A stretch of 33,622 bases of DNA from Candidatus Nealsonbacteria bacterium. Its GTDB lineage: Bacteria; Patescibacteriota; Minisyncoccia; Minisyncoccales; PWPS01. Below, one piece after another: positions 12,901 to 20,002 of the stretch. The stretch is from NCBI GenBank assembly GCA_003559635.1, contig PWKU01000034.1:1-33622 (forward strand), given 5' to 3'. Position 1 is the first letter of the stretch. Each line of letters opens with the position of its first letter. Under the pieces are notes generated by a model. That model was given only the letters and a program-made list of their open reading frames with translations. It made no database searches and had not been told where the DNA came from. The position numbers were made by a program, and so were the translations under genes.

Positions 12901-14607
12901 ATGGAAAAGATAACCACGAAAATAATTTTCTCCGCCGTATTACTTTTGCTTTTGCCTTCTTTGGCAAACAGCGCTTCACTGGGAGATGTGGAAAGGCTTT
13001 TTATCGAATCTGCCTATGACAATCACCAAAGAAGAAATACCGAGGCGGAATTAAAACTCATCACAAACCATATTTATTTTTATGTGGATAAGCGTTGGTG
13101 GAAGAGGGTCTCGGAAGAAGATGCTAAAGAGTATGAAAGAGTAATGTATAGTTTGGGAGGTGAGTTTGAAAAGAACATTTATCCTCGAATTAAGCAAAGA
13201 TTCGGTGTTTTCCCCAAACATAATGTTGTAGGAGAAGGCGAAAGAATAAATATTCTTTTCCATCCCATGGGAGAAAATTTTGGGGGCTATTTTAGATCCG
13301 GAGATCAGCATTCTATTTACCAATACCCACGATCCAACGAGAAAAATATTCTTTATTTAAATTCCAGTTTGATAGAGAATCCCAACTTGAGGGGATATTT
13401 AGCACATGAATATATGCATCTCGTTACTTTTAATGAAAAAAACAAAGAGTTTGGAATAAGCGAGGAGGTGTGGCTCAATGAGCTTCGGGCAGAGCTGATT
13501 ATTAGCAGCTTGGGATATAATGATGACTATGAAAACAGCAACCTAAGACAAAGAGTAAGAACTTTTCTCCGCGATCCGGACATCTCCCTTACTGAGTGGA
13601 CGGAACAAATTGCCGATTATGGTGTGATTAATGCTTTTGGAGAGTACTTGGTCGGGCACTATGGAGAGAAAATACTTATGGACTCCCTTAACTCCCAGAT
13701 TTCCGGAATTCCGAGCATTGATTACGCTTTGGAGAAAAATGAAGTAGGTAAAACTTTTTCGGAAATATTTACGGAGTGGATGATTGCCGTCTATCTCAAT
13801 GACTGCAAACACGGTGATTACTACTGTTATAAGAATGAAAAATTGAAAGACTTCAGTGTTTCTCCTGCAACGGTTTTTATTCCGACAAGAGATGGCGGGT
13901 CAGTCACTGTCAGATATCAGACAAAAAATTGGGCGGGAAATTGGCACCGGATTGTCGGGGGGTCGGGCGATCTTTATTTGGATTTTTACGGAGATGAAAT
14001 ATTTAATGTCCCCTATATTTTGTGTGAAAAAGACGGCAATTGTGAAGTTTCTTTTTTGGAAATAGATGAAGAAGGAGAGGGGAGTGTTGTTATTGAGGAA
14101 TTTAATTCCCGGTATGAATCAGTAGTTATTCTCCCCCACTTACAGCAAAAGTTTACCGGATTTAATGGGCCCGAAAAACCGGTTTCTTTTGAGTGGCAGG
14201 CGGAGGTAAGAGAAGAAAACGATGAAGAAAAGCTTAAACAGGAAGAGCTTCGCGAGCTTAGCGAGAGATTGTCGCTGATTAGAAGCAAAATAGAAGAAAT
14301 AAGTCTTCTTTTGGGCATAGGGTCTTCAGACGAGACATCTTTGGATAAAATAAGAGAAGACCTCCATTACGGGATGAGAAGATCCAGGGAAGTTGAAAAT
14401 TTGCAATTATTTTTAAAAAATCAAGGTGAGGAGATATATCCGGAGGGTTTGGTTACGGGCAACTTTCTCGTATTAACGAAAAGAGCGGTAATTCGTTTTC
14501 AAGAAAGGCACGCGGAAGAAATTTTGGATCCTCTCGGGCTTTCGGAAGGTACGGGATATGTCGGAGTACACACAAGGGAATTAATAAACTCTTTCTTGAA
14601 TAATTAA
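12901..14607 (+). CDS. Secreted zinc metallopeptidase (M30-like) with C-terminal peptidoglycan-binding-like domain
   Basis: Signal peptide; GGYF, LAHEYMHLV and WLNELRAE; C-terminal V..LQ.FL...YPEGLVTGNF..T..AV..FQ..EIL.P.G..GTGYVG..TR..IN. Confidence 0.8.
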   Translation: MEKITTKIIFSAVLLLLLPSLANSASLGDVERLFIESAYDNHQRRNTEAELKLITNHIYFYVDKRWWKRVSEEDAKEYERVMYSLGGEFEKNIYPRIKQRFGVFPKHNVVGEGERINILFHPMGENFGGYFRSGDQHSIYQYPRSNEKNILYLNSSLIENPNLRGYLAHEYMHLVTFNEKNKEFGISEEVWLNELRAELIISSLGYNDDYENSNLRQRVRTFLRDPDISLTEWTEQIADYGVINAFGEYLVGHYGEKILMDSLNSQISGIPSIDYALEKNEVGKTFSEIFTEWMIAVYLNDCKHGDYYCYKNEKLKDFSVSPATVFIPTRDGGSVTVRYQTKNWAGNWHRIVGGSGDLYLDFYGDEIFNVPYILCEKDGNCEVSFLEIDEEGEGSVVIEEFNSRYESVVILPHLQQKFTGFNGPEKPVSFEWQAEVREENDEEKLKQEELRELSERLSLIRSKIEEISLLLGIGSSDETSLDKIREDLHYGMRRSREVENLQLFLKNQGEEIYPEGLVTGNFLVLTKRAVIRFQERHAEEILDPLGLSEGTGYVGVHTRELINSFLNN

Positions 14608-14609
14608 AA

Positions 14610-15626
14610 ATGCGCGGTTTTTCTAAGTTTTTTGTCACTCTTCTTATTGGTGCTGCCATCCTTTTTTTTGTTGTTCGGGAAATGGGAACAGAGGCAATGT
14701 GGGCCGGAATTTCTTTGTTTATAGGATGGGGAGGTCTTTTGATTTTAATAAACACTTTCTTTGTCCTCTTGGCCGGTGCGCTCAGATGGGGACAGGTTCT
14801 AAAATCAGAGAACGAAAATGTTCCTTTTTTGATAATTTTGCGTTATCTTGTAAAAGGATTTACTGTTGACTTTCTTACGCCATTTTCTCTTTTCGGAGGG
14901 GAAACCGTAAGAATTTTTTTAATGGAAAAAGAGGTTGGCGTTAAAAAAAGCGCTTTTTCCGTGATAACCGATAAAATCTTGGATGTTACGATGCTCTTTT
15001 TCTTTTTACTATTAGGAATAACGCTTTTCGTTGTTTATAGTGTAACTCCCAGCGACTCTCTTTTATTTTATGCCGCGGGGGTTATCGCTTTGGTGCTTTT
15101 TGTTCTTGTGTTGTTTTATGTAAAAGCATTGCAAAAAGAAAGCTTTTTAAAATGGGTTTTTGCGATTGTCGGTATATCAAGGAAGTACCTTGATGAGACG
15201 GAGAATGGAAGAGCTATCATTGAGGTTGAAGAAAAAATTATCCATTTTTTTTCCGGCAAAAAAAGAGAGCTTGTAAAAGGGTTGGCGTTCAGTTTTCTCC
15301 GCCACTTTTTTTTCGTGTCAAGAATTTTTTTGATTATGTTTCTAATTACCGGGTCAACAGATCCGGGAATTGCAATAACGGTCTACGGACTTGTTATTTT
15401 GGCAATGTTTCTTCCTTTGCCCGCTGCGCTTGGCTCAATGGAGGTTATTTTAGTGCTGGGACTTGGAGCGATCGGGCACGAGATTGGTGCCGGATTAACG
15501 GCGGCAACCACCCTTAGAGGAGCCGATTTAATGGTTTGCGCGGTGGGTGTGATTTTATTTATAAGACTTTCGTTCATGTCTTTCTATCATCAGTTTAATA
15601 AATTTATGGAAAGATTTGCAAAATAG
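14610..15626 (+). CDS. Lysylphosphatidylglycerol synthase TM / flippase-like (UPF0104) membrane protein
   Basis: ALRW, TPFSLFGGE..R, DKILD and PLPAALGSME motifs; multiple TMs. Confidence 0.85.
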   Translation: MRGFSKFFVTLLIGAAILFFVVREMGTEAMWAGISLFIGWGGLLILINTFFVLLAGALRWGQVLKSENENVPFLIILRYLVKGFTVDFLTPFSLFGGETVRIFLMEKEVGVKKSAFSVITDKILDVTMLFFFLLLGITLFVVYSVTPSDSLLFYAAGVIALVLFVLVLFYVKALQKESFLKWVFAIVGISRKYLDETENGRAIIEVEEKIIHFFSGKKRELVKGLAFSFLRHFFFVSRIFLIMFLITGSTDPGIAITVYGLVILAMFLPLPAALGSMEVILVLGLGAIGHEIGAGLTAATTLRGADLMVCAVGVILFIRLSFMSFYHQFNKFMERFAK

Positions 15627-15701
15627 ATTTTTGAAGGAGTAAAAGAAGATTGCCCTTGACAAAAAAATGCCCTTAAAACCACCATTCCCCCTTAAAAACA
15701 A

Positions 15702-15730
15702 AGCATTGCAGGGTCAGACCCTGCAATGCT
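15702..15730 (+). repeat. REP-like palindrome copy 2 (perfect 14-1-14)
   Basis: AGCATTGCAGGGTC-A-GACCCTGCAATGCT. Confidence 0.92.
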
Positions 15731-15740
15731 AGTTTTTTTT

Positions 15741-15784
15741 AGACGGACATTTCTACTTTGCTTAAGACGGATATTAGTACGTTG
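15741..15784 (+). promoter_or_regulatory. Imperfect 20-bp direct repeat pair, possible regulator sites
   Basis: AGACGGACATTTCTACTTTG (15741) and AGACGGATATTAGTACGTTG (15765), 16/20 identical. Confidence 0.45.
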
Positions 15785-15803
15785 GGTTGATAAGACACCT
15801 GAT

Positions 15804-15831
15804 TTGACATATTTTTTTATTTTGCTATCAT
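15804..15831 (+). promoter_or_regulatory. sigma70 promoter P1
   Basis: TTGACA-16 nt-TATCAT with extended TG; predicted TSS ~15838. Confidence 0.75.
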
Positions 15832-15837
15832 TCTCTT

Positions 15838-15900
15838 AGTGGGTAGGTGCGAAAGGTGACTCCAATTCGGCGAAAAACCTCACTCGAGCGAGGTTTTTTG
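15838..15900 (+). ncRNA. Candidate small RNA 1 (~62 nt)
   Basis: Lies between promoter P1 and a terminator; no credible ORF; two blocks are complementary to candidate RNA 2. Confidence 0.55.
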
Positions 15901-15901
15901 C
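15870..15901 (+). terminator. Intrinsic terminator of candidate RNA 1
   Basis: GCGAAAAACCTC-ACTCGAGC-GAGGTTTTTTGC. Confidence 0.75.
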
Positions 15902-15960
15902 TTTCAAAAAGCTGGTATGATGTCAAAATGTTTCTCTTTGAAAAAAGAGATTTTTTATAC

Positions 15961-15988
15961 TTGACACCTTTTTTCACTCTGTTAGAAT
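15961..15988 (+). promoter_or_regulatory. sigma70 promoter P2
   Basis: TTGACA-16 nt-TAGAAT with extended TG; predicted TSS ~15995. Confidence 0.78.
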
Positions 15989-15994
15989 GAGTTC

Positions 15995-16046
15995 GGGTCG
16001 GAAGGCACGTACTCACAGAATTGGAGTTAACGCTTCCGGCCCTTTT
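15995..16046 (+). ncRNA. Candidate small RNA 2 or structured murB leader (~52 nt)
   Basis: 10-bp stem GGGTCGGAAG/CTTCCGGCCC starting exactly at the predicted TSS, 28-nt loop, then TTTT. Confidence 0.55.
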
Positions 16047-16062
16047 AATTGCAAGCAAAAAT

Positions 16063-16998
16063 ATGAAAGAAGAAAAGAAGGAAGAGAAGATAGAAACAGA
16101 CCGCTCTTTGGAAAAATATAATACGATGCGTTTGAAAAGCATTGCCGATTTCTTTTTGAGAGCGAAAGATAAGGAAGATATTGTAAAAGGAGTTAGCTTT
16201 GCAAGAGAAAAAGGCATCCCTTTTTTTATTTTGGGTGCGGGAAGTAATGTCATTTTTCCCTCAAGATATGAAGGGCTTGTAATTTTAATGGCGAATAATA
16301 ATTTTAAAGTAATTGAGGAAGAGAGCTCGGTTAAAGTTTTTGCAGAAAGTGGGGCATATCTCCCCCGCGTTTCAGTTTCTGTGGATGAGAAGCTAGGAAA
16401 GGGGCTGGAATGGGCAGGAGGAGTTCCGGGAAGTGTCGGTGGAGCGGTCAGGGGAAATGCCGGAGCGTTTAACGGTTTTATGGCTGATTGCGTAAAGAGG
16501 GTGGTGGCGCTGAATACTGTTTCATTAGAAGAAGAAGTTTTTCAAAACAAGGATTGCCTTTTCGGATACAGGGAAAGTGTTTTCAAAAAGGAGGGGAAAT
16601 ATATTATCTTGGAGGTTGAAATGAAGTTTCCCAAAAAAGAGGAACAAAACGGCAAACAAAAGGAGTATATGGATTATCGTGAGAAGAACCATCCCATCAA
16701 ACCGTCAGCGGGAAGCGTTTTTAAGAATCCTGAAGTAGATGAAAATTTTTATTATTCTTTCCCGGAAACAGAAAAGTTCAAAGAGCTTGGTTTTGTCCCG
16801 GCAAGATTTTTGATAGAGGGTTGCGGTTTGGCAGGGTTTTCGGTTGGAGAAGCGCAGGTATCGGAAAAGCATGCCAATTTTATCGTTAATAAAGGAGATG
16901 CCACTCGGGAAGATATAAAAAAACTGATAAGTATTATAAAACAAAAAGTAAAAGAAAAATTCGGGATTTCTATTACTGAAGAAGTGAAGATTGTTTGA
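16063..16998 (+). CDS. murB: UDP-N-acetylenolpyruvoylglucosamine reductase
   Basis: LGAGSNV, GVPGSVGGAVRGNAGA, FGYRESVFK, SAGSVFKNP, SEKHANFIVN. ATG 16063 preferred over TTG 16021. Confidence 0.95.
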   Translation: MKEEKKEEKIETDRSLEKYNTMRLKSIADFFLRAKDKEDIVKGVSFAREKGIPFFILGAGSNVIFPSRYEGLVILMANNNFKVIEEESSVKVFAESGAYLPRVSVSVDEKLGKGLEWAGGVPGSVGGAVRGNAGAFNGFMADCVKRVVALNTVSLEEEVFQNKDCLFGYRESVFKKEGKYIILEVEMKFPKKEEQNGKQKEYMDYREKNHPIKPSAGSVFKNPEVDENFYYSFPETEKFKELGFVPARFLIEGCGLAGFSVGEAQVSEKHANFIVNKGDATREDIKKLISIIKQKVKEKFGISITEEVKIV

Positions 16999-17047
16999 TT
17001 ATTGAAATATATCTGGTAAAATAAAAAAGCTAACTTTTAAAAAGAAA

Positions 17048-17440
17048 ATGGAAGTTGTTATCAAATCAAAAAATATAGATCTTACTCCTCATTTAAAAAA
17101 TTATGCGGAGAAAAAACTTCTTTCCGCCTGTGGTCTTATTCCCGCTCTTTTAGAGAAAGAAGCCGAAGACAAAGAGCAGGTCGGAAGAGATGTAAACAGG
17201 GTAGTCCTGGAAGTGGAAATTGAAAAAGTTACCGGAGATGAAAAAGGCAGGATATTTCGTACCGAAGCGCAGATGATTCTCCCCGGGCGGATAATAAAAG
17301 CGGAAGATGTTGCCGAAACGGTGAAGGCTTCTATAGATGAAGTGAAGTATGAGCTTCAAAGACAGGTGAAAGACTATAAAGAGAAGGTGGAAACGATAAA
17401 AAAGAAAGGTGGACAGCAAGCGAAAAAAATGAGGGAGTAA
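17048..17440 (+). CDS. hpf: Ribosome hibernation promoting factor (HPF/RaiA)
   Basis: KNIDLT..LK.Y.EKKL ... AE....ASID....L.RQ...K.K; typical position upstream of secA. Confidence 0.88.
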   Translation: MEVVIKSKNIDLTPHLKNYAEKKLLSACGLIPALLEKEAEDKEQVGRDVNRVVLEVEIEKVTGDEKGRIFRTEAQMILPGRIIKAEDVAETVKASIDEVKYELQRQVKDYKEKVETIKKKGGQQAKKMRE

Positions 17441-17467
17441 GTGGATTAATGTAAGTAGAATATACAA

Positions 17468-20002
17468 GTGTCTTTTTTAAAGAAAATATTTGGTGATCCG
17501 AATGAAAAGTACCTAAAGTCAATAAAACCCCTTGTTTCCGATGTTAATAATTTGGAAAAAGAGCTGGAGGGGCTTACCGACGAAGAGATAGGCGAAAAAT
17601 CGAAAGATCTCCAAAGCAGAGCAAAACAAGAACCACTAGACGGCCTTTTGCCGGAAGCCTTTGCTTTGGCGCGCGAATCGGCAAAAAGAACTTTGAGTCA
17701 ACGGCATTATGATGTCCAAATTTTAGGAGGTATTATTCTCCACCAAGGAAGGACCGCAGAAATGAAAACAGGGGAAGGTAAGACGCTTTCCGCCACTCTT
17801 CCCGCCTATCTGAATGCGCTTACGAAAAAAGGAGTGCATATTGTCACCGTTAACGACTATCTGGCGAGAAGAGATACGGTGTGGATGGGGCAGATATATC
17901 ATTTTTTGGGAATTTCCGTGGCGTGCATAAATGACAGGCAGTCTTTTATATATGATCCCGAGCATAAATCGGGAAGCGAAGAGAAGGACGAGGCTCGTGA
18001 TAAGATGGGGTCGTTTTATGTTGAAGAAGATTTTCTTCGACCGTGCAGTAGAAAAGAAGCTTATCTTGCGGACATAACTTACGGAACGAACAACCAGTTT
18101 GGATTTGATTATTTACGCGATAATATGGCGATTACTTTTGCTGACCGTGTTCAAAGAGGATTTAATTATGCGATAGTGGACGAAGTTGACTCTATCTTGA
18201 TTGATGAAGCGAGAACCCCGCTTATTATTTCGGTTCCCGAAGAAGGGGAGGAGTTTGAAAACAAGAAAGCGATGTACAAGGAGTTCTCACAAATTGTCCC
18301 CAAGCTGGAAGCGGGCACCGACTATGAAATCCATGAGAGAGAAAAAGCGGTAACACTTACCGAGGAAGGGATAGAAAAGGTTGAAAGAATACTGAATGTA
18401 GAAAACATCTATGATGATAAGGGAATAAATTCCGTATATCATTTAGAGCAGGCTCTTCGTGCACAGGCGAAACATCCCGAAACAAAAAAACCGACTTATG
18501 AAAAAGATATCAATTATGTTATTAAAGATGGAGAAGTAATTATTGTTGACGATTTTACGGGAAGGCTTATGCCGGGAAGAAGGTGGTCCGGAGGGCTTCA
18601 TCAGGCGATAGAAGCGAAAGAAGGCTTGGAAATAAAACCGGAGTCCAGTACCATGGCTAGTGTTACATTCCAGAATCTTTTCAGAATGTACGACACAATA
18701 TCCGGAATGACGGGAACGGCGGTAACGTCGGCCGAAGAGCTTTTCAAGGTTTACGGAATGGAGGTTACGATTGTCCCCACAAACAGACCCCTTATAAGGA
18801 AGTCTCTCTCCGATTTGGTTTATAAAACGGAAAGAGCAAAATTTAATGCGGTTGTAGATGAGGTTAAAAGAAGAAATGAAAAAGGGCAGCCGGTTCTTAT
18901 TGGAACGGTTTCAATTGAGAAAAACGAGGTTCTTTCAAAGATGCTTAAAAGAAATGGTGTTCCCCATAAGCTGCTAAACGCTAAAAACCATGAAAAAGAA
19001 GCGGAGATTATTGCTCAAGCCGGAAGACTCGGTGCGGTAACGGTTGCGACAAATATGGCGGGAAGAGGGGTTGATATAATTCTAGGAGGAACTCCTCCCG
19101 AGGAAGAAGAAGCACGGAAGGTGTGTGATCTTGGAGGACTTTTTGTTTTGGGTACCGAGAGGCACGAGGCAAGAAGAATAGACGACCAGCTTAGAGGAAG
19201 ATGCGGGAGACAAGGGGATCCCGGAGAAAGCCAATTTTTTGTTTCACTGGAAGACGATTTGATGAGAATTTTTGGAGCGGAGAAAATAAGTGGACTAATG
19301 AGTCGTTTTAATCTTCCGGATGATATGCCGATTGATGCGAGATATGTTTCGGGAATTATTGAATCGGCCCAAAAGAGGGTTGAGGGGCATCATTTTGACG
19401 CGCGTAAGCATATCTTGCAATACGATGAAGTGTTGTTTAAACACCGCGAAAAGTTTTACAAATTCAGAACCGATATTTTAAAGAGGGCGGAGAACAAAGA
19501 AAGAGGCTCGGAAGAAAGTTTGCGTGCTTACATTCTGGAAATATTTGAGAAGAACGAAAAAGACAAGGAAGAATACTTAAAAAAAGAAGAAGACGTTATT
19601 TCGCGAGTGGGAGACGAAGAGAAAGGAAAAGAAGAAATGAATAATATAGAAAGGTTTGTTATCTTGAGAACGATGGACTTTCTCTGGAAAGACCACTTAA
19701 CAATGATGGAGGAGTTAAGGGAGGCTGTACGGCTTAGAGCCTACGGGCAAAAAGATCCTCTTACCGAATATAAGAGGGAGGGCCATAGAGCCTTTAAAGA
19801 ATTAATGGTCAATATTGAGCTCGAAATTAGCGAAAGGATTTTACGAGTTAATATTGCCAGAACAAGACCCAACACACAAAGAATAGTTATAAGGAAGAAT
19901 GTTGAATCGGAAAATAGTGATTCGGGGAAAAAGAAAACCAAGAGAAACGATCCTTGTTTTTGTGGAAGCGGAAAGAAATACAAAAGATGCCATGGAAAGT
20001 AA
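17468..20002 (+). CDS. secA: Preprotein translocase ATPase SecA
   Basis: MKTGEGKT, DEVDSILIDEARTPLIIS, ATNMAGRG, QLRGRCGRQGDPG and a C-terminal SEC-C motif. Confidence 0.98.
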   Translation: MSFLKKIFGDPNEKYLKSIKPLVSDVNNLEKELEGLTDEEIGEKSKDLQSRAKQEPLDGLLPEAFALARESAKRTLSQRHYDVQILGGIILHQGRTAEMKTGEGKTLSATLPAYLNALTKKGVHIVTVNDYLARRDTVWMGQIYHFLGISVACINDRQSFIYDPEHKSGSEEKDEARDKMGSFYVEEDFLRPCSRKEAYLADITYGTNNQFGFDYLRDNMAITFADRVQRGFNYAIVDEVDSILIDEARTPLIISVPEEGEEFENKKAMYKEFSQIVPKLEAGTDYEIHEREKAVTLTEEGIEKVERILNVENIYDDKGINSVYHLEQALRAQAKHPETKKPTYEKDINYVIKDGEVIIVDDFTGRLMPGRRWSGGLHQAIEAKEGLEIKPESSTMASVTFQNLFRMYDTISGMTGTAVTSAEELFKVYGMEVTIVPTNRPLIRKSLSDLVYKTERAKFNAVVDEVKRRNEKGQPVLIGTVSIEKNEVLSKMLKRNGVPHKLLNAKNHEKEAEIIAQAGRLGAVTVATNMAGRGVDIILGGTPPEEEEARKVCDLGGLFVLGTERHEARRIDDQLRGRCGRQGDPGESQFFVSLEDDLMRIFGAEKISGLMSRFNLPDDMPIDARYVSGIIESAQKRVEGHHFDARKHILQYDEVLFKHREKFYKFRTDILKRAENKERGSEESLRAYILEIFEKNEKDKEEYLKKEEDVISRVGDEEKGKEEMNNIERFVILRTMDFLWKDHLTMMEELREAVRLRAYGQKDPLTEYKREGHRAFKELMVNIELEISERILRVNIARTRPNTQRIVIRKNVESENSDSGKKKTKRNDPCFCGSGKKYKRCHGK

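Follow-up and report, generated by a model that had tools for sequence, protein, structure and literature searches.

The small RNA OxyS binds fhlA through two loop-loop kisses of 7–9 pairs, which involve the coding region and the leader of the mRNA, and two-piece transfer-messenger RNA (tmRNA) is a circular permutation of the one-piece form that is assembled from two separately encoded pieces. Leaders of the pT181 type switch between an antiterminator and a terminator. Antisense-RNA transcription attenuators of this type, which belong to Gram-positive plasmids, are treated in the parts of PMC4878617 and PMC3753616 that were available. According to the accessible part of PMC10798244, in which Kolb et al. 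are cited, CopA and CopT of plasmid R1 change from an extended kissing complex into a four-way junction with side-by-side helices. Here we analyzed two small tandem units, RNA1 and RNA2, located directly upstream of murB in a contig of 33,622 nt from a Candidatus Nealsonbacteria bacterium (PWKU01000034.1 of assembly GCA_003559635.1; hereafter, the window), the genome of which comprises 584 kb in 55 contigs with a G+C content of 40%. RNA1 carries two blocks, A and B, that are predicted to pair in trans with two blocks, A' and B', held in the loop of an RNA2 hairpin whose closing stem we call P1.

In kind, the pair would be, by analogy, a case of a small RNA pairing with the hairpin of a leader in a CopA-CopT-like junction. 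As far as the available part of the CopA-CopT source describes it, that system and this one would share the exchange of strands in the upper part of the hairpins, the resulting 2 side-by-side intermolecular helices and 2 intramolecular stems, and a partner that is an mRNA leader; for RNA1 and RNA2 the likeness consists of the secondary-structure topology and the covariation of both helices. However, CopA is encoded opposite its target and is nearly fully complementary to it, whereas RNA1 and RNA2 are separate genes, usually on the same strand and in some genomes 0.1–2 kb apart or on different contigs, that match in two blocks only, and the regulator thus does not lie on the strand opposite its target as in cis-antisense systems. 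Unlike in CopA-CopT, RNA1 is permuted, so that the two helices have its free ends at their far sides while its hairpin at the junction is closed, and both RNAs are chromosomal and conserved across a bacterial class, with neither a leader peptide nor a replication gene. As in pT181-type attenuators, a small RNA would bind a nascent leader, and a hairpin followed by a T-run is present shortly before the start codon, but we found no competing fold, and RNA1 would bind inside the terminator loop and is not encoded opposite the leader. RNA1 resembles OxyS in being a separately encoded small RNA that uses two short helices instead of one long duplex, but its helices with RNA2 have 9–16 pairs, both lie within one hairpin loop, and the junction that they form is closed. 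With two-piece tmRNA the pair shares the making of a structured RNA from two separately encoded pieces, but this is a different RNA, and a normal one-piece tmRNA is encoded elsewhere in the genome. We know of no one-piece form of the RNA1:RNA2 junction, nor of a described counterpart for its trans-encoded, circularly permuted connectivity, for the placing of two helices in one loop, or for the class-wide conservation of such a system in uncultured bacteria.

The original prediction for this locus, made from the sequence letters alone, had proposed two near-identical promoter layouts (TTGACA-16-TGnTAnnAT, at 15804 and 15961), four pairing blocks and a 10-bp stem in RNA2. All of these were found at the proposed coordinates, and both promoters are near-consensus (Table 1). 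The prediction had also counted 11 of 12 paired positions in A/A' and 12 of 12 in B/B', in the permuted order A-B versus A'-B', and this complementarity was confirmed: A:A' has 10 Watson-Crick pairs, 1 G-T pair, and 1 G-G mismatch, and B:B' has 11 Watson-Crick pairs and 1 G-T pair. Because the trans complex is a pseudoknot, which folding tools cannot draw, the two helices were scored separately. Their summed duplex energy was -34.0 kcal/mol, compared with -8.8 +/- 3.0 kcal/mol (best, -20.7) when the 5' part of RNA1 was shuffled, and none of 2000 shuffles was as good. The single 12-mers are unremarkable (block A has 15 other matches with 2 mismatches in the 584-kb genome, A' included), and at no more than 1 mismatch none of the four blocks matches any site in this genome except its partner. 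RNA2 alone folds with -23.8 kcal/mol (z = -4.67 relative to shuffled sequences). As to the proposed terminator of RNA1, the stem is backed by its fold and by covariation, but a simple terminator scan listed neither the 3' hairpin of RNA1 nor the stem of RNA2, and the label "terminator-like" derives from folds and conservation. In the RNA1 3' hairpin, the T-run is mostly paired with an upstream A-run inside the stem, leaving just GCTTT after it.

Table 1. Features of the RNA1-RNA2-murB locus in the window (position 1 is the first nucleotide of the contig).
Feature	Position	Strand	Details
RNA1 promoter	15804-15831	+	-35 TTGACA 15804-09, 16-nt spacer, TG 15823-24, -10 TATCAT 15826-31
RNA1, ~67 nt (predicted)	15838-15904	+	5' A, block A, linker, block B, 3' hairpin; model R2, 80.5 bits
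Block A	15839-15850	+	Partner: A' of RNA2
RNA1 linker GAAAGG	15851-15856	+	Occupies the place of the variable hairpin (fourth junction arm) of most relatives
Block B	15857-15868	+	Partner: B' of RNA2
RNA1 3' hairpin and T-rich tail	15870-15904	+	12-pair stem 15870-81/15890-901, CTCGAG in tip; terminator-like
RNA2 promoter	15961-15988	+	-35 TTGACA 15961-66, 16-nt spacer, TG 15980-81, -10 TAGAAT 15983-88
RNA2, ~52 nt (predicted)	15995-16046	+	Stem P1, A'/B' loop, TTTT; putatively also the murB 5' leader; model R1, 79 bits (15995-16045)
RNA2 stem P1	15995-16004 with 16033-42	+	10 pairs; TTTT 16043-46 next
RNA2 loop	A' 16005-16, one A, B' 16018-29, ACG	+	
murB	16063-16998	+	UDP-N-acetylenolpyruvoylglucosamine reductase; Pfam MurB_C 2.6e-30, FAD_binding_4 3.8e-16
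Ribosome hibernation factor gene (S30AE/HPF family)	17048-17440	+	Pfam PF02482 5.9e-13; directly after murB
secA	17468-20002		After the HPF-family gene
LPG-synthase-like membrane protein gene	14610-15626		Upstream neighbour of both RNA units

To analyze the pairing across relatives, we used a tabulated set of 40 genomes, 5 loci of other orders (labelled L), locus L062, and the RNA1 of three further genomes of the genus, which together cover part of the 77 genomes that hold both RNAs. Pairs were counted in two MAFFT alignments built without regard to the structure, one of family f1, to which this genome belongs (12 sequences), and one of other families and orders (20 sequences); the genomes are related and the null is not phylogeny-aware, so the p-values overstate independence. 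In family f1, 96.1% of the cells were paired, compared with 35–57% when the partner was slid, and the covariation score was reached by 0 of 500 shuffles. In this family, 3 of 10 pairs of A:A' and 3 of 12 pairs of B:B' had changed on both sides (with 95.3% and 89.4% of cells paired, respectively). In the 20-sequence alignment, 94.9% of the cells were paired versus 86.0% in shuffled alignments, and 23 pairs had changed on both sides versus 9.5, again with 0 of 500 shuffles as good. These changes fell on 7 of 10 pairs of P1, 12 of 13 of the RNA1 3' hairpin, 2 of 8 of A:A', and 2 of 7 of distal B:B', P1 and the RNA1 hairpin thus supplying most of the covariation signal. The proximal part of B:B' (GGAG/CTCC) was left out on alignment A5, where MAFFT loses register, and the A:A' cores are nearly invariant and carry little information either way on the pairing. 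A per-column table of the 40 genomes, which was fitted genome by genome and is therefore somewhat favourable, contains several pair types at 11 loop columns. The distal B helix changes by lineage between CTAAGTC/GACTTAG, CTACGTC/GACGTAG, CTATGTC/GACATAG, and CTATGTG/CACATAG.

The partners of the same genome also fit one another better than those of different genomes. Cognate pairs reached a mean of -29.8 kcal/mol and non-cognate pairs -25.2 kcal/mol, a difference that none of 10000 permutations equalled, and the own partner was best or tied-best in just 11 of 40 genomes, as expected among close kin. The modelled strands formed more stable complexes than the opposite strands in 33 of 40 genomes (1 tie, 6 worse), and this asymmetry argues against a signal at the DNA level. 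Pairing was kept where RNA2 is inverted or where the two genes are about 2 kb apart; G005, with 2.1 kb between its two genes, has an A in A' that is specific to its lineage, and block A carries the matching T (C-G to A-T). Altogether, the compensatory changes, the cognate preference, and the strand preference bear out the prediction that RNA1 and RNA2 pair in trans through A:A' and B:B', and from these comparisons we consider this pairing very probably real.

The arrangement of the helices is similar across lineages. In most of them, RNA1 consists of a 5' A, GTGAGTGC, a variable hairpin, ACTCC, 2–4 nt, CTAAGTC, and the terminator, and RNA2 consists of a first P1 strand, approximately 4 nt, GCACTCAC, approximately 3–4 nt, GACTTAG, approximately 4 nt, GGAGT, TAAC(T), and the second P1 strand. 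From these elements the complex is predicted to be bimolecular, with a three-way junction in this genome and, in most relatives, a four-way junction, the arms of which would be P1, A:A', the RNA1 hairpin, and B:B'. A short RNA2 linker joins the far ends of both intermolecular helices, three helices abut without linkers on the RNA1 side, and RNA2 supplies two unpaired junction strands that are nearly invariant. In family f1, including this genome, the RNA1 hairpin is reduced to a linker of 4–16 nt, and about 10 nt of the RNA2 loop are gone. The median length of RNA1 between A and B is 7 nt in this family and 11 nt elsewhere, and the medians are 11 for A, 14 for B, and 1 nt for the distal linker in f1 and 9, 16, and 3 nt, respectively, in the others; A:A' has thus lengthened to about 11 pairs in f1. 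Helix and linker lengths thus shift together, which is expected if both helices form at once, side by side. The original prediction had left open whether the RNAs form a three-way junction or whether the pairings are alternatives; the permuted junction was upheld, and the co-varying lengths favour, although they do not prove, the simultaneous formation of both helices.

Each RNA can also fold its blocks on itself. RNA1 alone folds A on B in 36 of 40 genomes, the RNA2 loop forms an inner helix in 40 of 40, and these folds share a GAGT/ACTC core. Formation of the complex would therefore be a strand exchange between two hairpins, and the conservation of the core may be explained by its serving both the self-folding and the intermolecular pairing. 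In the predicted topology, RNA1 can be described as a circular permutation of an antisense hairpin, with the tip opened and the base closed, and such permuted connectivity would account for the order A-B versus A'-B'. A separate observation concerns the tip of the RNA1 hairpin (15881-15890 in this genome), which has the form C(A/C)CTCGAGCG, contains the palindrome CTCGAG, and is almost invariant across families, while the stem below covaries freely. It is swapped for unrelated loops in 7 of 40 genomes (G142, G042, G131, G066, G166, G115, and G100). This tip may serve for dimerisation between loops or be contacted by a protein.

Both units carry the marks of separate genes. A promoter scan of positions 14500-17500 gave 9 promoter-like sites, compared with 5.2 +/- 2.3 in shuffled sequences, and the RNA1 and RNA2 promoters were the two best of the 9, each matching 11 of 12 hexamer positions with a TG extension. 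Their predicted starts are A 15838 for RNA1 and G 15995, the first base of P1, for RNA2, and both units show the arrangement of a sigma-70-type transcription unit, for which -35 and -10 elements spaced by 16–18 nt (16 nt here) and kept at a fixed distance from the 5' end are expected. Upstream of RNA1, a TAnnnT box lies 4–9 nt before the 5' end in 39 of 40 genomes (35 TG-extended, mostly with 6/6 matches to TTGACA); in the 40th, G032, the -10 box is present and the start coordinate is 3 nt off. RNA2 has a -10 box at the right distance in all 39 genomes with upstream sequence, 25 of them TG-extended and the inverted cases included. The gene arrangement is variable. The tandem order RNA1-RNA2-murB is the commonest, but RNA2 is inverted together with its promoter in 6 genomes of the tabulated 40 and in 11 of all 89 that have RNA2. 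Five genomes have RNA1 at a distance of 0.4–1.2 kb, G005 has it 2.1 kb away, and in G013 it is on a different contig. An RNA1 match was found within 1.5 kb at 27 of the 30 best RNA2 loci. The claim of two separate transcription units is therefore supported by promoters kept before both and by the variable arrangement, and together with the cognate pairing these comparisons show, as judged from sequence, that RNA1 and RNA2 are small RNAs transcribed from separate units and joined in a specific heterodimer.

To determine the distribution of the units, we used covariance models of RNA2 (R1, 19 sequences) and RNA1 (R2, 16 sequences). Plain similarity finds both units in the genus and the family at approximately 70–90% identity; the models were built from sequences found in this way and are tuned to the order, and prevalence elsewhere is thus a lower bound. 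RNA2 was found in 89 of 151 genomes of the order, which belongs to the Patescibacteria, representing 75 of 120 genera and always with exactly one match, and RNA1, also single-copy, in 94 of the 151. Of these 151 genomes, 77 carried both RNAs, 17 had RNA1 without RNA2, 12 had RNA2 without RNA1, and 45 had neither. At least 12 of the RNA1-only genomes have RNA1 on the murB contig, within approximately 1 kb before the matched C-terminal domain; since RNA1 sits beside murB there, a divergent RNA2 may have been missed. In a sample of 151 genomes of the same class, R1 had 17 matches with lower scores, 3 of which belong to the order itself. In a sample of 151 genomes of the phylum, it had 3, all within the order, and none in the 144 genomes of other classes. 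Among 33 murB loci of other lineages, RNA2 was detected in 1 and RNA1 in 1, both times in L062, the closest of them. A few irregular loci were noted. In L104, from another order, a partial second RNA2-like copy (a stem strand and the A' motif, ~1370-1410) lies approximately 100 nt upstream of the full match. L100 and L102, which have a higher G+C content, lack recognisable promoters before RNA2. Contigs C11 and C29 of G002 carry two copies of unit 2, and contigs C11 and C34 of G010 overlap in unit 1, all at contig ends; these recurrences are probably assembly breaks or strain variants, not true duplications.

RNA2 is closely associated with murB. Of the 89 genomes, 83 have it 5' of murB and none has it on the 3' side: it is directly 5' on the same strand in 72 and on the opposite strand in 11, while it is on another contig in 4, 46 kb apart in 1, and in a genome in which murB was not found in 1. 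All 40 tabulated genomes have murB adjoining RNA2. A murB gene was found in 136 of the 151 genomes of the order; RNA2 is present in 88 of these and in 1 of the other 15. The ATG of many tandem genomes follows P1 by only 4–20 nt, which leaves no space for a promoter, so that RNA2 must be the 5' leader of murB in those genomes. The 16 nt that lie between the T-run and the ATG in this genome contain neither a Shine-Dalgarno-like sequence nor a good promoter. A T-run follows P1 in 33 of 40 genomes, on our reading of the sequences, and here P1 and TTTT (16033-46) would provide the hairpin and T-run of a leader terminator, as in an attenuator. A single RNA run matched (0.04 of the sampled words), and it gave one contig over RNA2 and none over RNA1, on which it is uninformative. 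This metatranscriptome contig of 155 nt covers 15994-16054 with one difference and continues with 92 nt of a relative's murB; its end, no more than 3 nt from where RNA2 is predicted to start, would fit a transcript beginning at RNA2 +1 and reading into murB.

These observations suggest a mechanism in which RNA1 acts on the murB leader, one of two roles offered by the original prediction, the other being a two-piece noncoding RNA. RNA2 would be the 5' leader of a murB-hpf transcript in this genome, as suggested by the distance of only 16 nt between the T-run and the ATG, and RNA1, made from its near-consensus promoter, would dock on the loop of the leader hairpin and set how much murB message is made or used. 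The likeliest route would be altered termination at P1-TTTT. Alternatively, binding might act on message stability, as a 5'-terminal hairpin may be protective and RNase III, which is encoded in the genome, could cleave helices of 12–14 pairs, or on the access of ribosomes to a start codon close to a stable junction. Assembly would probably be co-transcriptional, with RNA1 binding A' and B' before the 3' strand of P1 exists, because a linear RNA that has to wind more than one turn round two segments of a closed loop should assemble most easily before the loop closes. Such assembly would explain why the two genes stay neighbours. As an explanation of the locus overall, a heterodimer in which RNA1 acts on the murB leader is the best that we have, and we rate it as about evenly balanced between right and wrong; that the pair acts on murB expression in this genome, taken by itself and judged from the sequence, we hold to be slightly short of an even chance.

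Several observations weigh against control of murB. Where RNA2 and murB are absent together, a single locus that failed to assemble may be part of the reason, since the two are neighbours. No antiterminator structure was found in competition with P1, which the minimum-energy folds retain in 40 of 40 genomes, with just a small inner helix of RNA2 that competes with RNA1 binding, and RNA1 would contact the loop and not the stem, so that the route from binding to termination is not evident. In 11 of 89 genomes RNA2 runs opposite to murB, which in such genomes has a promoter-like box of its own 6–7 nt before the ATG, from which it follows that cis control cannot be the universal role. A promoter-like box for murB also occurs after RNA2 in the tandem genomes G056, G164/G126, G032, G012, and G011. 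A separate canonical terminator follows RNA2 in G116, G100, G060, G057, and G168, and one is also found in L095, L098, and L101 of other orders, where murB is next to RNA2 in just 7 of 11 loci. The RNA contig has a depth of only 3.8 and comes from a relative, contigs cannot prove a start, and RNA libraries may hold DNA. Finally, the cores GTGAGTGC/GCACTCAC and GGAGT..AAC are conserved far beyond the needs of pairing, which hints at another partner, possibly a protein or a ligand. Control of murB is plausible for this genome but cannot be a universal role.

Some of these loci have further features. The TG-extended -10 box 6–7 nt before the murB ATG, seen for example in L018 (1640-1680), L040, G056, G164, G032, G012, and G011, suggests that the murB messages of those relatives may be leaderless. 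Where RNA2 is inverted, the murB box and the -10 box of RNA2 stand back to back within approximately 37 nt. In L096 (1073-1492), from another order, RNA1 and RNA2 lie directly before an HPF-family gene and not before murB. An HPF-family gene lies downstream of murB in many relatives, and to judge from gene order the RNA pair may belong with the entire murB-hpf unit.

The strongest rival to RNA1 acting on the murB leader is an autonomous heterodimeric noncoding RNA, serving as a protein scaffold, a small-molecule sensor at the junction, or a catalyst, whose position at murB would be inherited and on whose read-through murB would ride. The near-consensus RNA1 promoter, the single copy per genome in 75 of 120 genera, and the near-invariance of junction strands and cores beyond pairing needs all suit such an RNA, as do the pairing with RNA1 that is retained when RNA2 is inverted (11/89), the extra RNA2 terminator of several genomes and orders, and the 4 of 11 other-order loci in which RNA2 is not beside murB. 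It accounts poorly for the 83 of 89 genomes with RNA2 5' of murB, and none with RNA2 on the 3' side, for the many genomes in which RNA2 is physically the murB leader, and for the lack of RNA2 in 14 of 15 genomes without murB; moreover, no protein partner gene is consistently adjacent. We consider this explanation a serious one but the less probable. The more far-reaching proposal is a new class of two-gene, self-assembling RNA, a bimolecular four-way junction with one circularly permuted partner that would probably lock during transcription of RNA2. It would act as an autonomous sensor, through the invariant junction strands, or as a scaffold for a protein, with a class-wide housekeeping role and with murB control at most a side effect; we consider it more unlikely than likely, though hardly less probable than the rival just described.

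If instead one of the RNAs acted on other targets and the other titrated it, the conserved cores could serve a third partner, and the strong promoter of RNA1, which probably makes it abundant, would be understandable. However, the blocks have no match elsewhere in the 584-kb genome at up to 1 mismatch, a search that was not extended to further targets, and the covariation runs between RNA1 and RNA2 themselves, which makes a regulator and its decoy improbable. The two units might also be parts of one long murB leader, a single transcript in which A:A' and B:B' form a cis pseudoknot. The tandem order of most genomes and the failure of the simple scan to list the RNA1 3' hairpin as a terminator would agree with this, but all 39 genomes with upstream sequence conserve a promoter immediately ahead of RNA2, 11 of 89 have RNA2 on the opposite strand, and several retain the pairing although RNA1 is 0.4–2 kb distant or on a different contig, so that a single leader is very improbable. 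Equally remote is a signal in the DNA itself (co-evolving repeated protein sites) or a chance match, for although the blocks lie at or just after both promoters and the RNA2 loop is partly palindromic in many genomes, the modelled strands pair better in 33 of 40 through their G-T positions, to which a DNA site would be indifferent, the palindrome is not kept in other orders, and 0 of 2000 shuffles reach the observed pairing energy.

The pair was also compared with known RNA families. The original prediction had recognised no known family, and in agreement with this a scan of the whole window with Rfam 15 (4227 models) gave no match at the gathering threshold. Sub-threshold matches in 15600-16150 were at chance level, the best being istR on the minus strand, over the RNA1 3' hairpin, with 26.2 bits against a threshold of 45. 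A scan with ARAGORN for tRNA and tmRNA in the window found none. In literature on murB and on small RNAs or riboswitches of Patescibacteria or the candidate phyla radiation, the titles and abstract openings contained nothing relevant. As far as Rfam and these parts of the literature were searched, the family is new, and the architecture is undescribed for chromosomal small RNAs. Several other identities were rejected. Replacement of RNase P RNA or tmRNA was discarded because both are present elsewhere in the genome; 6S RNA has no match in the genome, and the junction is unlike that of 6S. A coding frame from TTG 16021 into murB is open in approximately one third of the relatives, the proportion expected by chance, and a GTG-started frame in RNA1 stops after 6 codons in this genome. 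A palindromic operator in the RNA2 loop was rejected, as neither family f1 nor other orders preserve the palindrome. As regards a riboswitch, which would need a conserved ligand pocket acting on an expression platform, RNA2 offers nearly invariant unpaired junction strands, which point to no particular ligand. Inversion of the loop only, through recombination of the P1 arms, was dismissed because the inverted units keep the modelled-strand G-T pairs and their own -10 box.

A two-piece signal recognition particle (SRP) RNA was rejected as well: neither RF00169 nor RF01854 matched, Ffh and FtsY are also missing, and the GGAA of P1 is not conserved. The SRP RNA model RF00169 had no match in 41 genomes (this one, G000, and its 40 relatives), and RF01854 had none in this genome, which also gave no match to the Ffh M domain and no SRP54-type GTPase above the cut-off. 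Of the 41 genomes, 1 has a full-length SRP54-type GTPase (Ffh/FtsY), G021, which is 68% complete and in which the contig is possibly foreign, and marginal matches barely over the cut-off occur in G016 and G030. In control genomes, the searches were positive for both protein domains in 14 of 14 and for the SRP RNA model in 12 of 14. The SRP system was thus undetected in this order, while SecA is encoded in the window; the titles of the literature searched included nothing on a missing SRP system in this order.

Most members of the candidate phyla radiation are uncultured, their genomes are tiny and encode few regulators, and to our knowledge almost nothing is known about RNA-based regulation in them. 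The RNA1-RNA2 module is compact, approximately 120 nt in all, covaries clearly, is present once per genome, occurs in over half of the sampled genomes of the order, and is tied to an essential cell-wall gene, and it offers a case of RNA-RNA recognition via two helices inside one loop. If murB control is true, it would represent a new way of tuning peptidoglycan synthesis; if not, a new housekeeping RNA. At the upstream border of the locus, a perfect 13-pair hairpin with T-runs on both strands (15702-15730), resembling a bidirectional terminator, closes the LPG-synthase-like gene.

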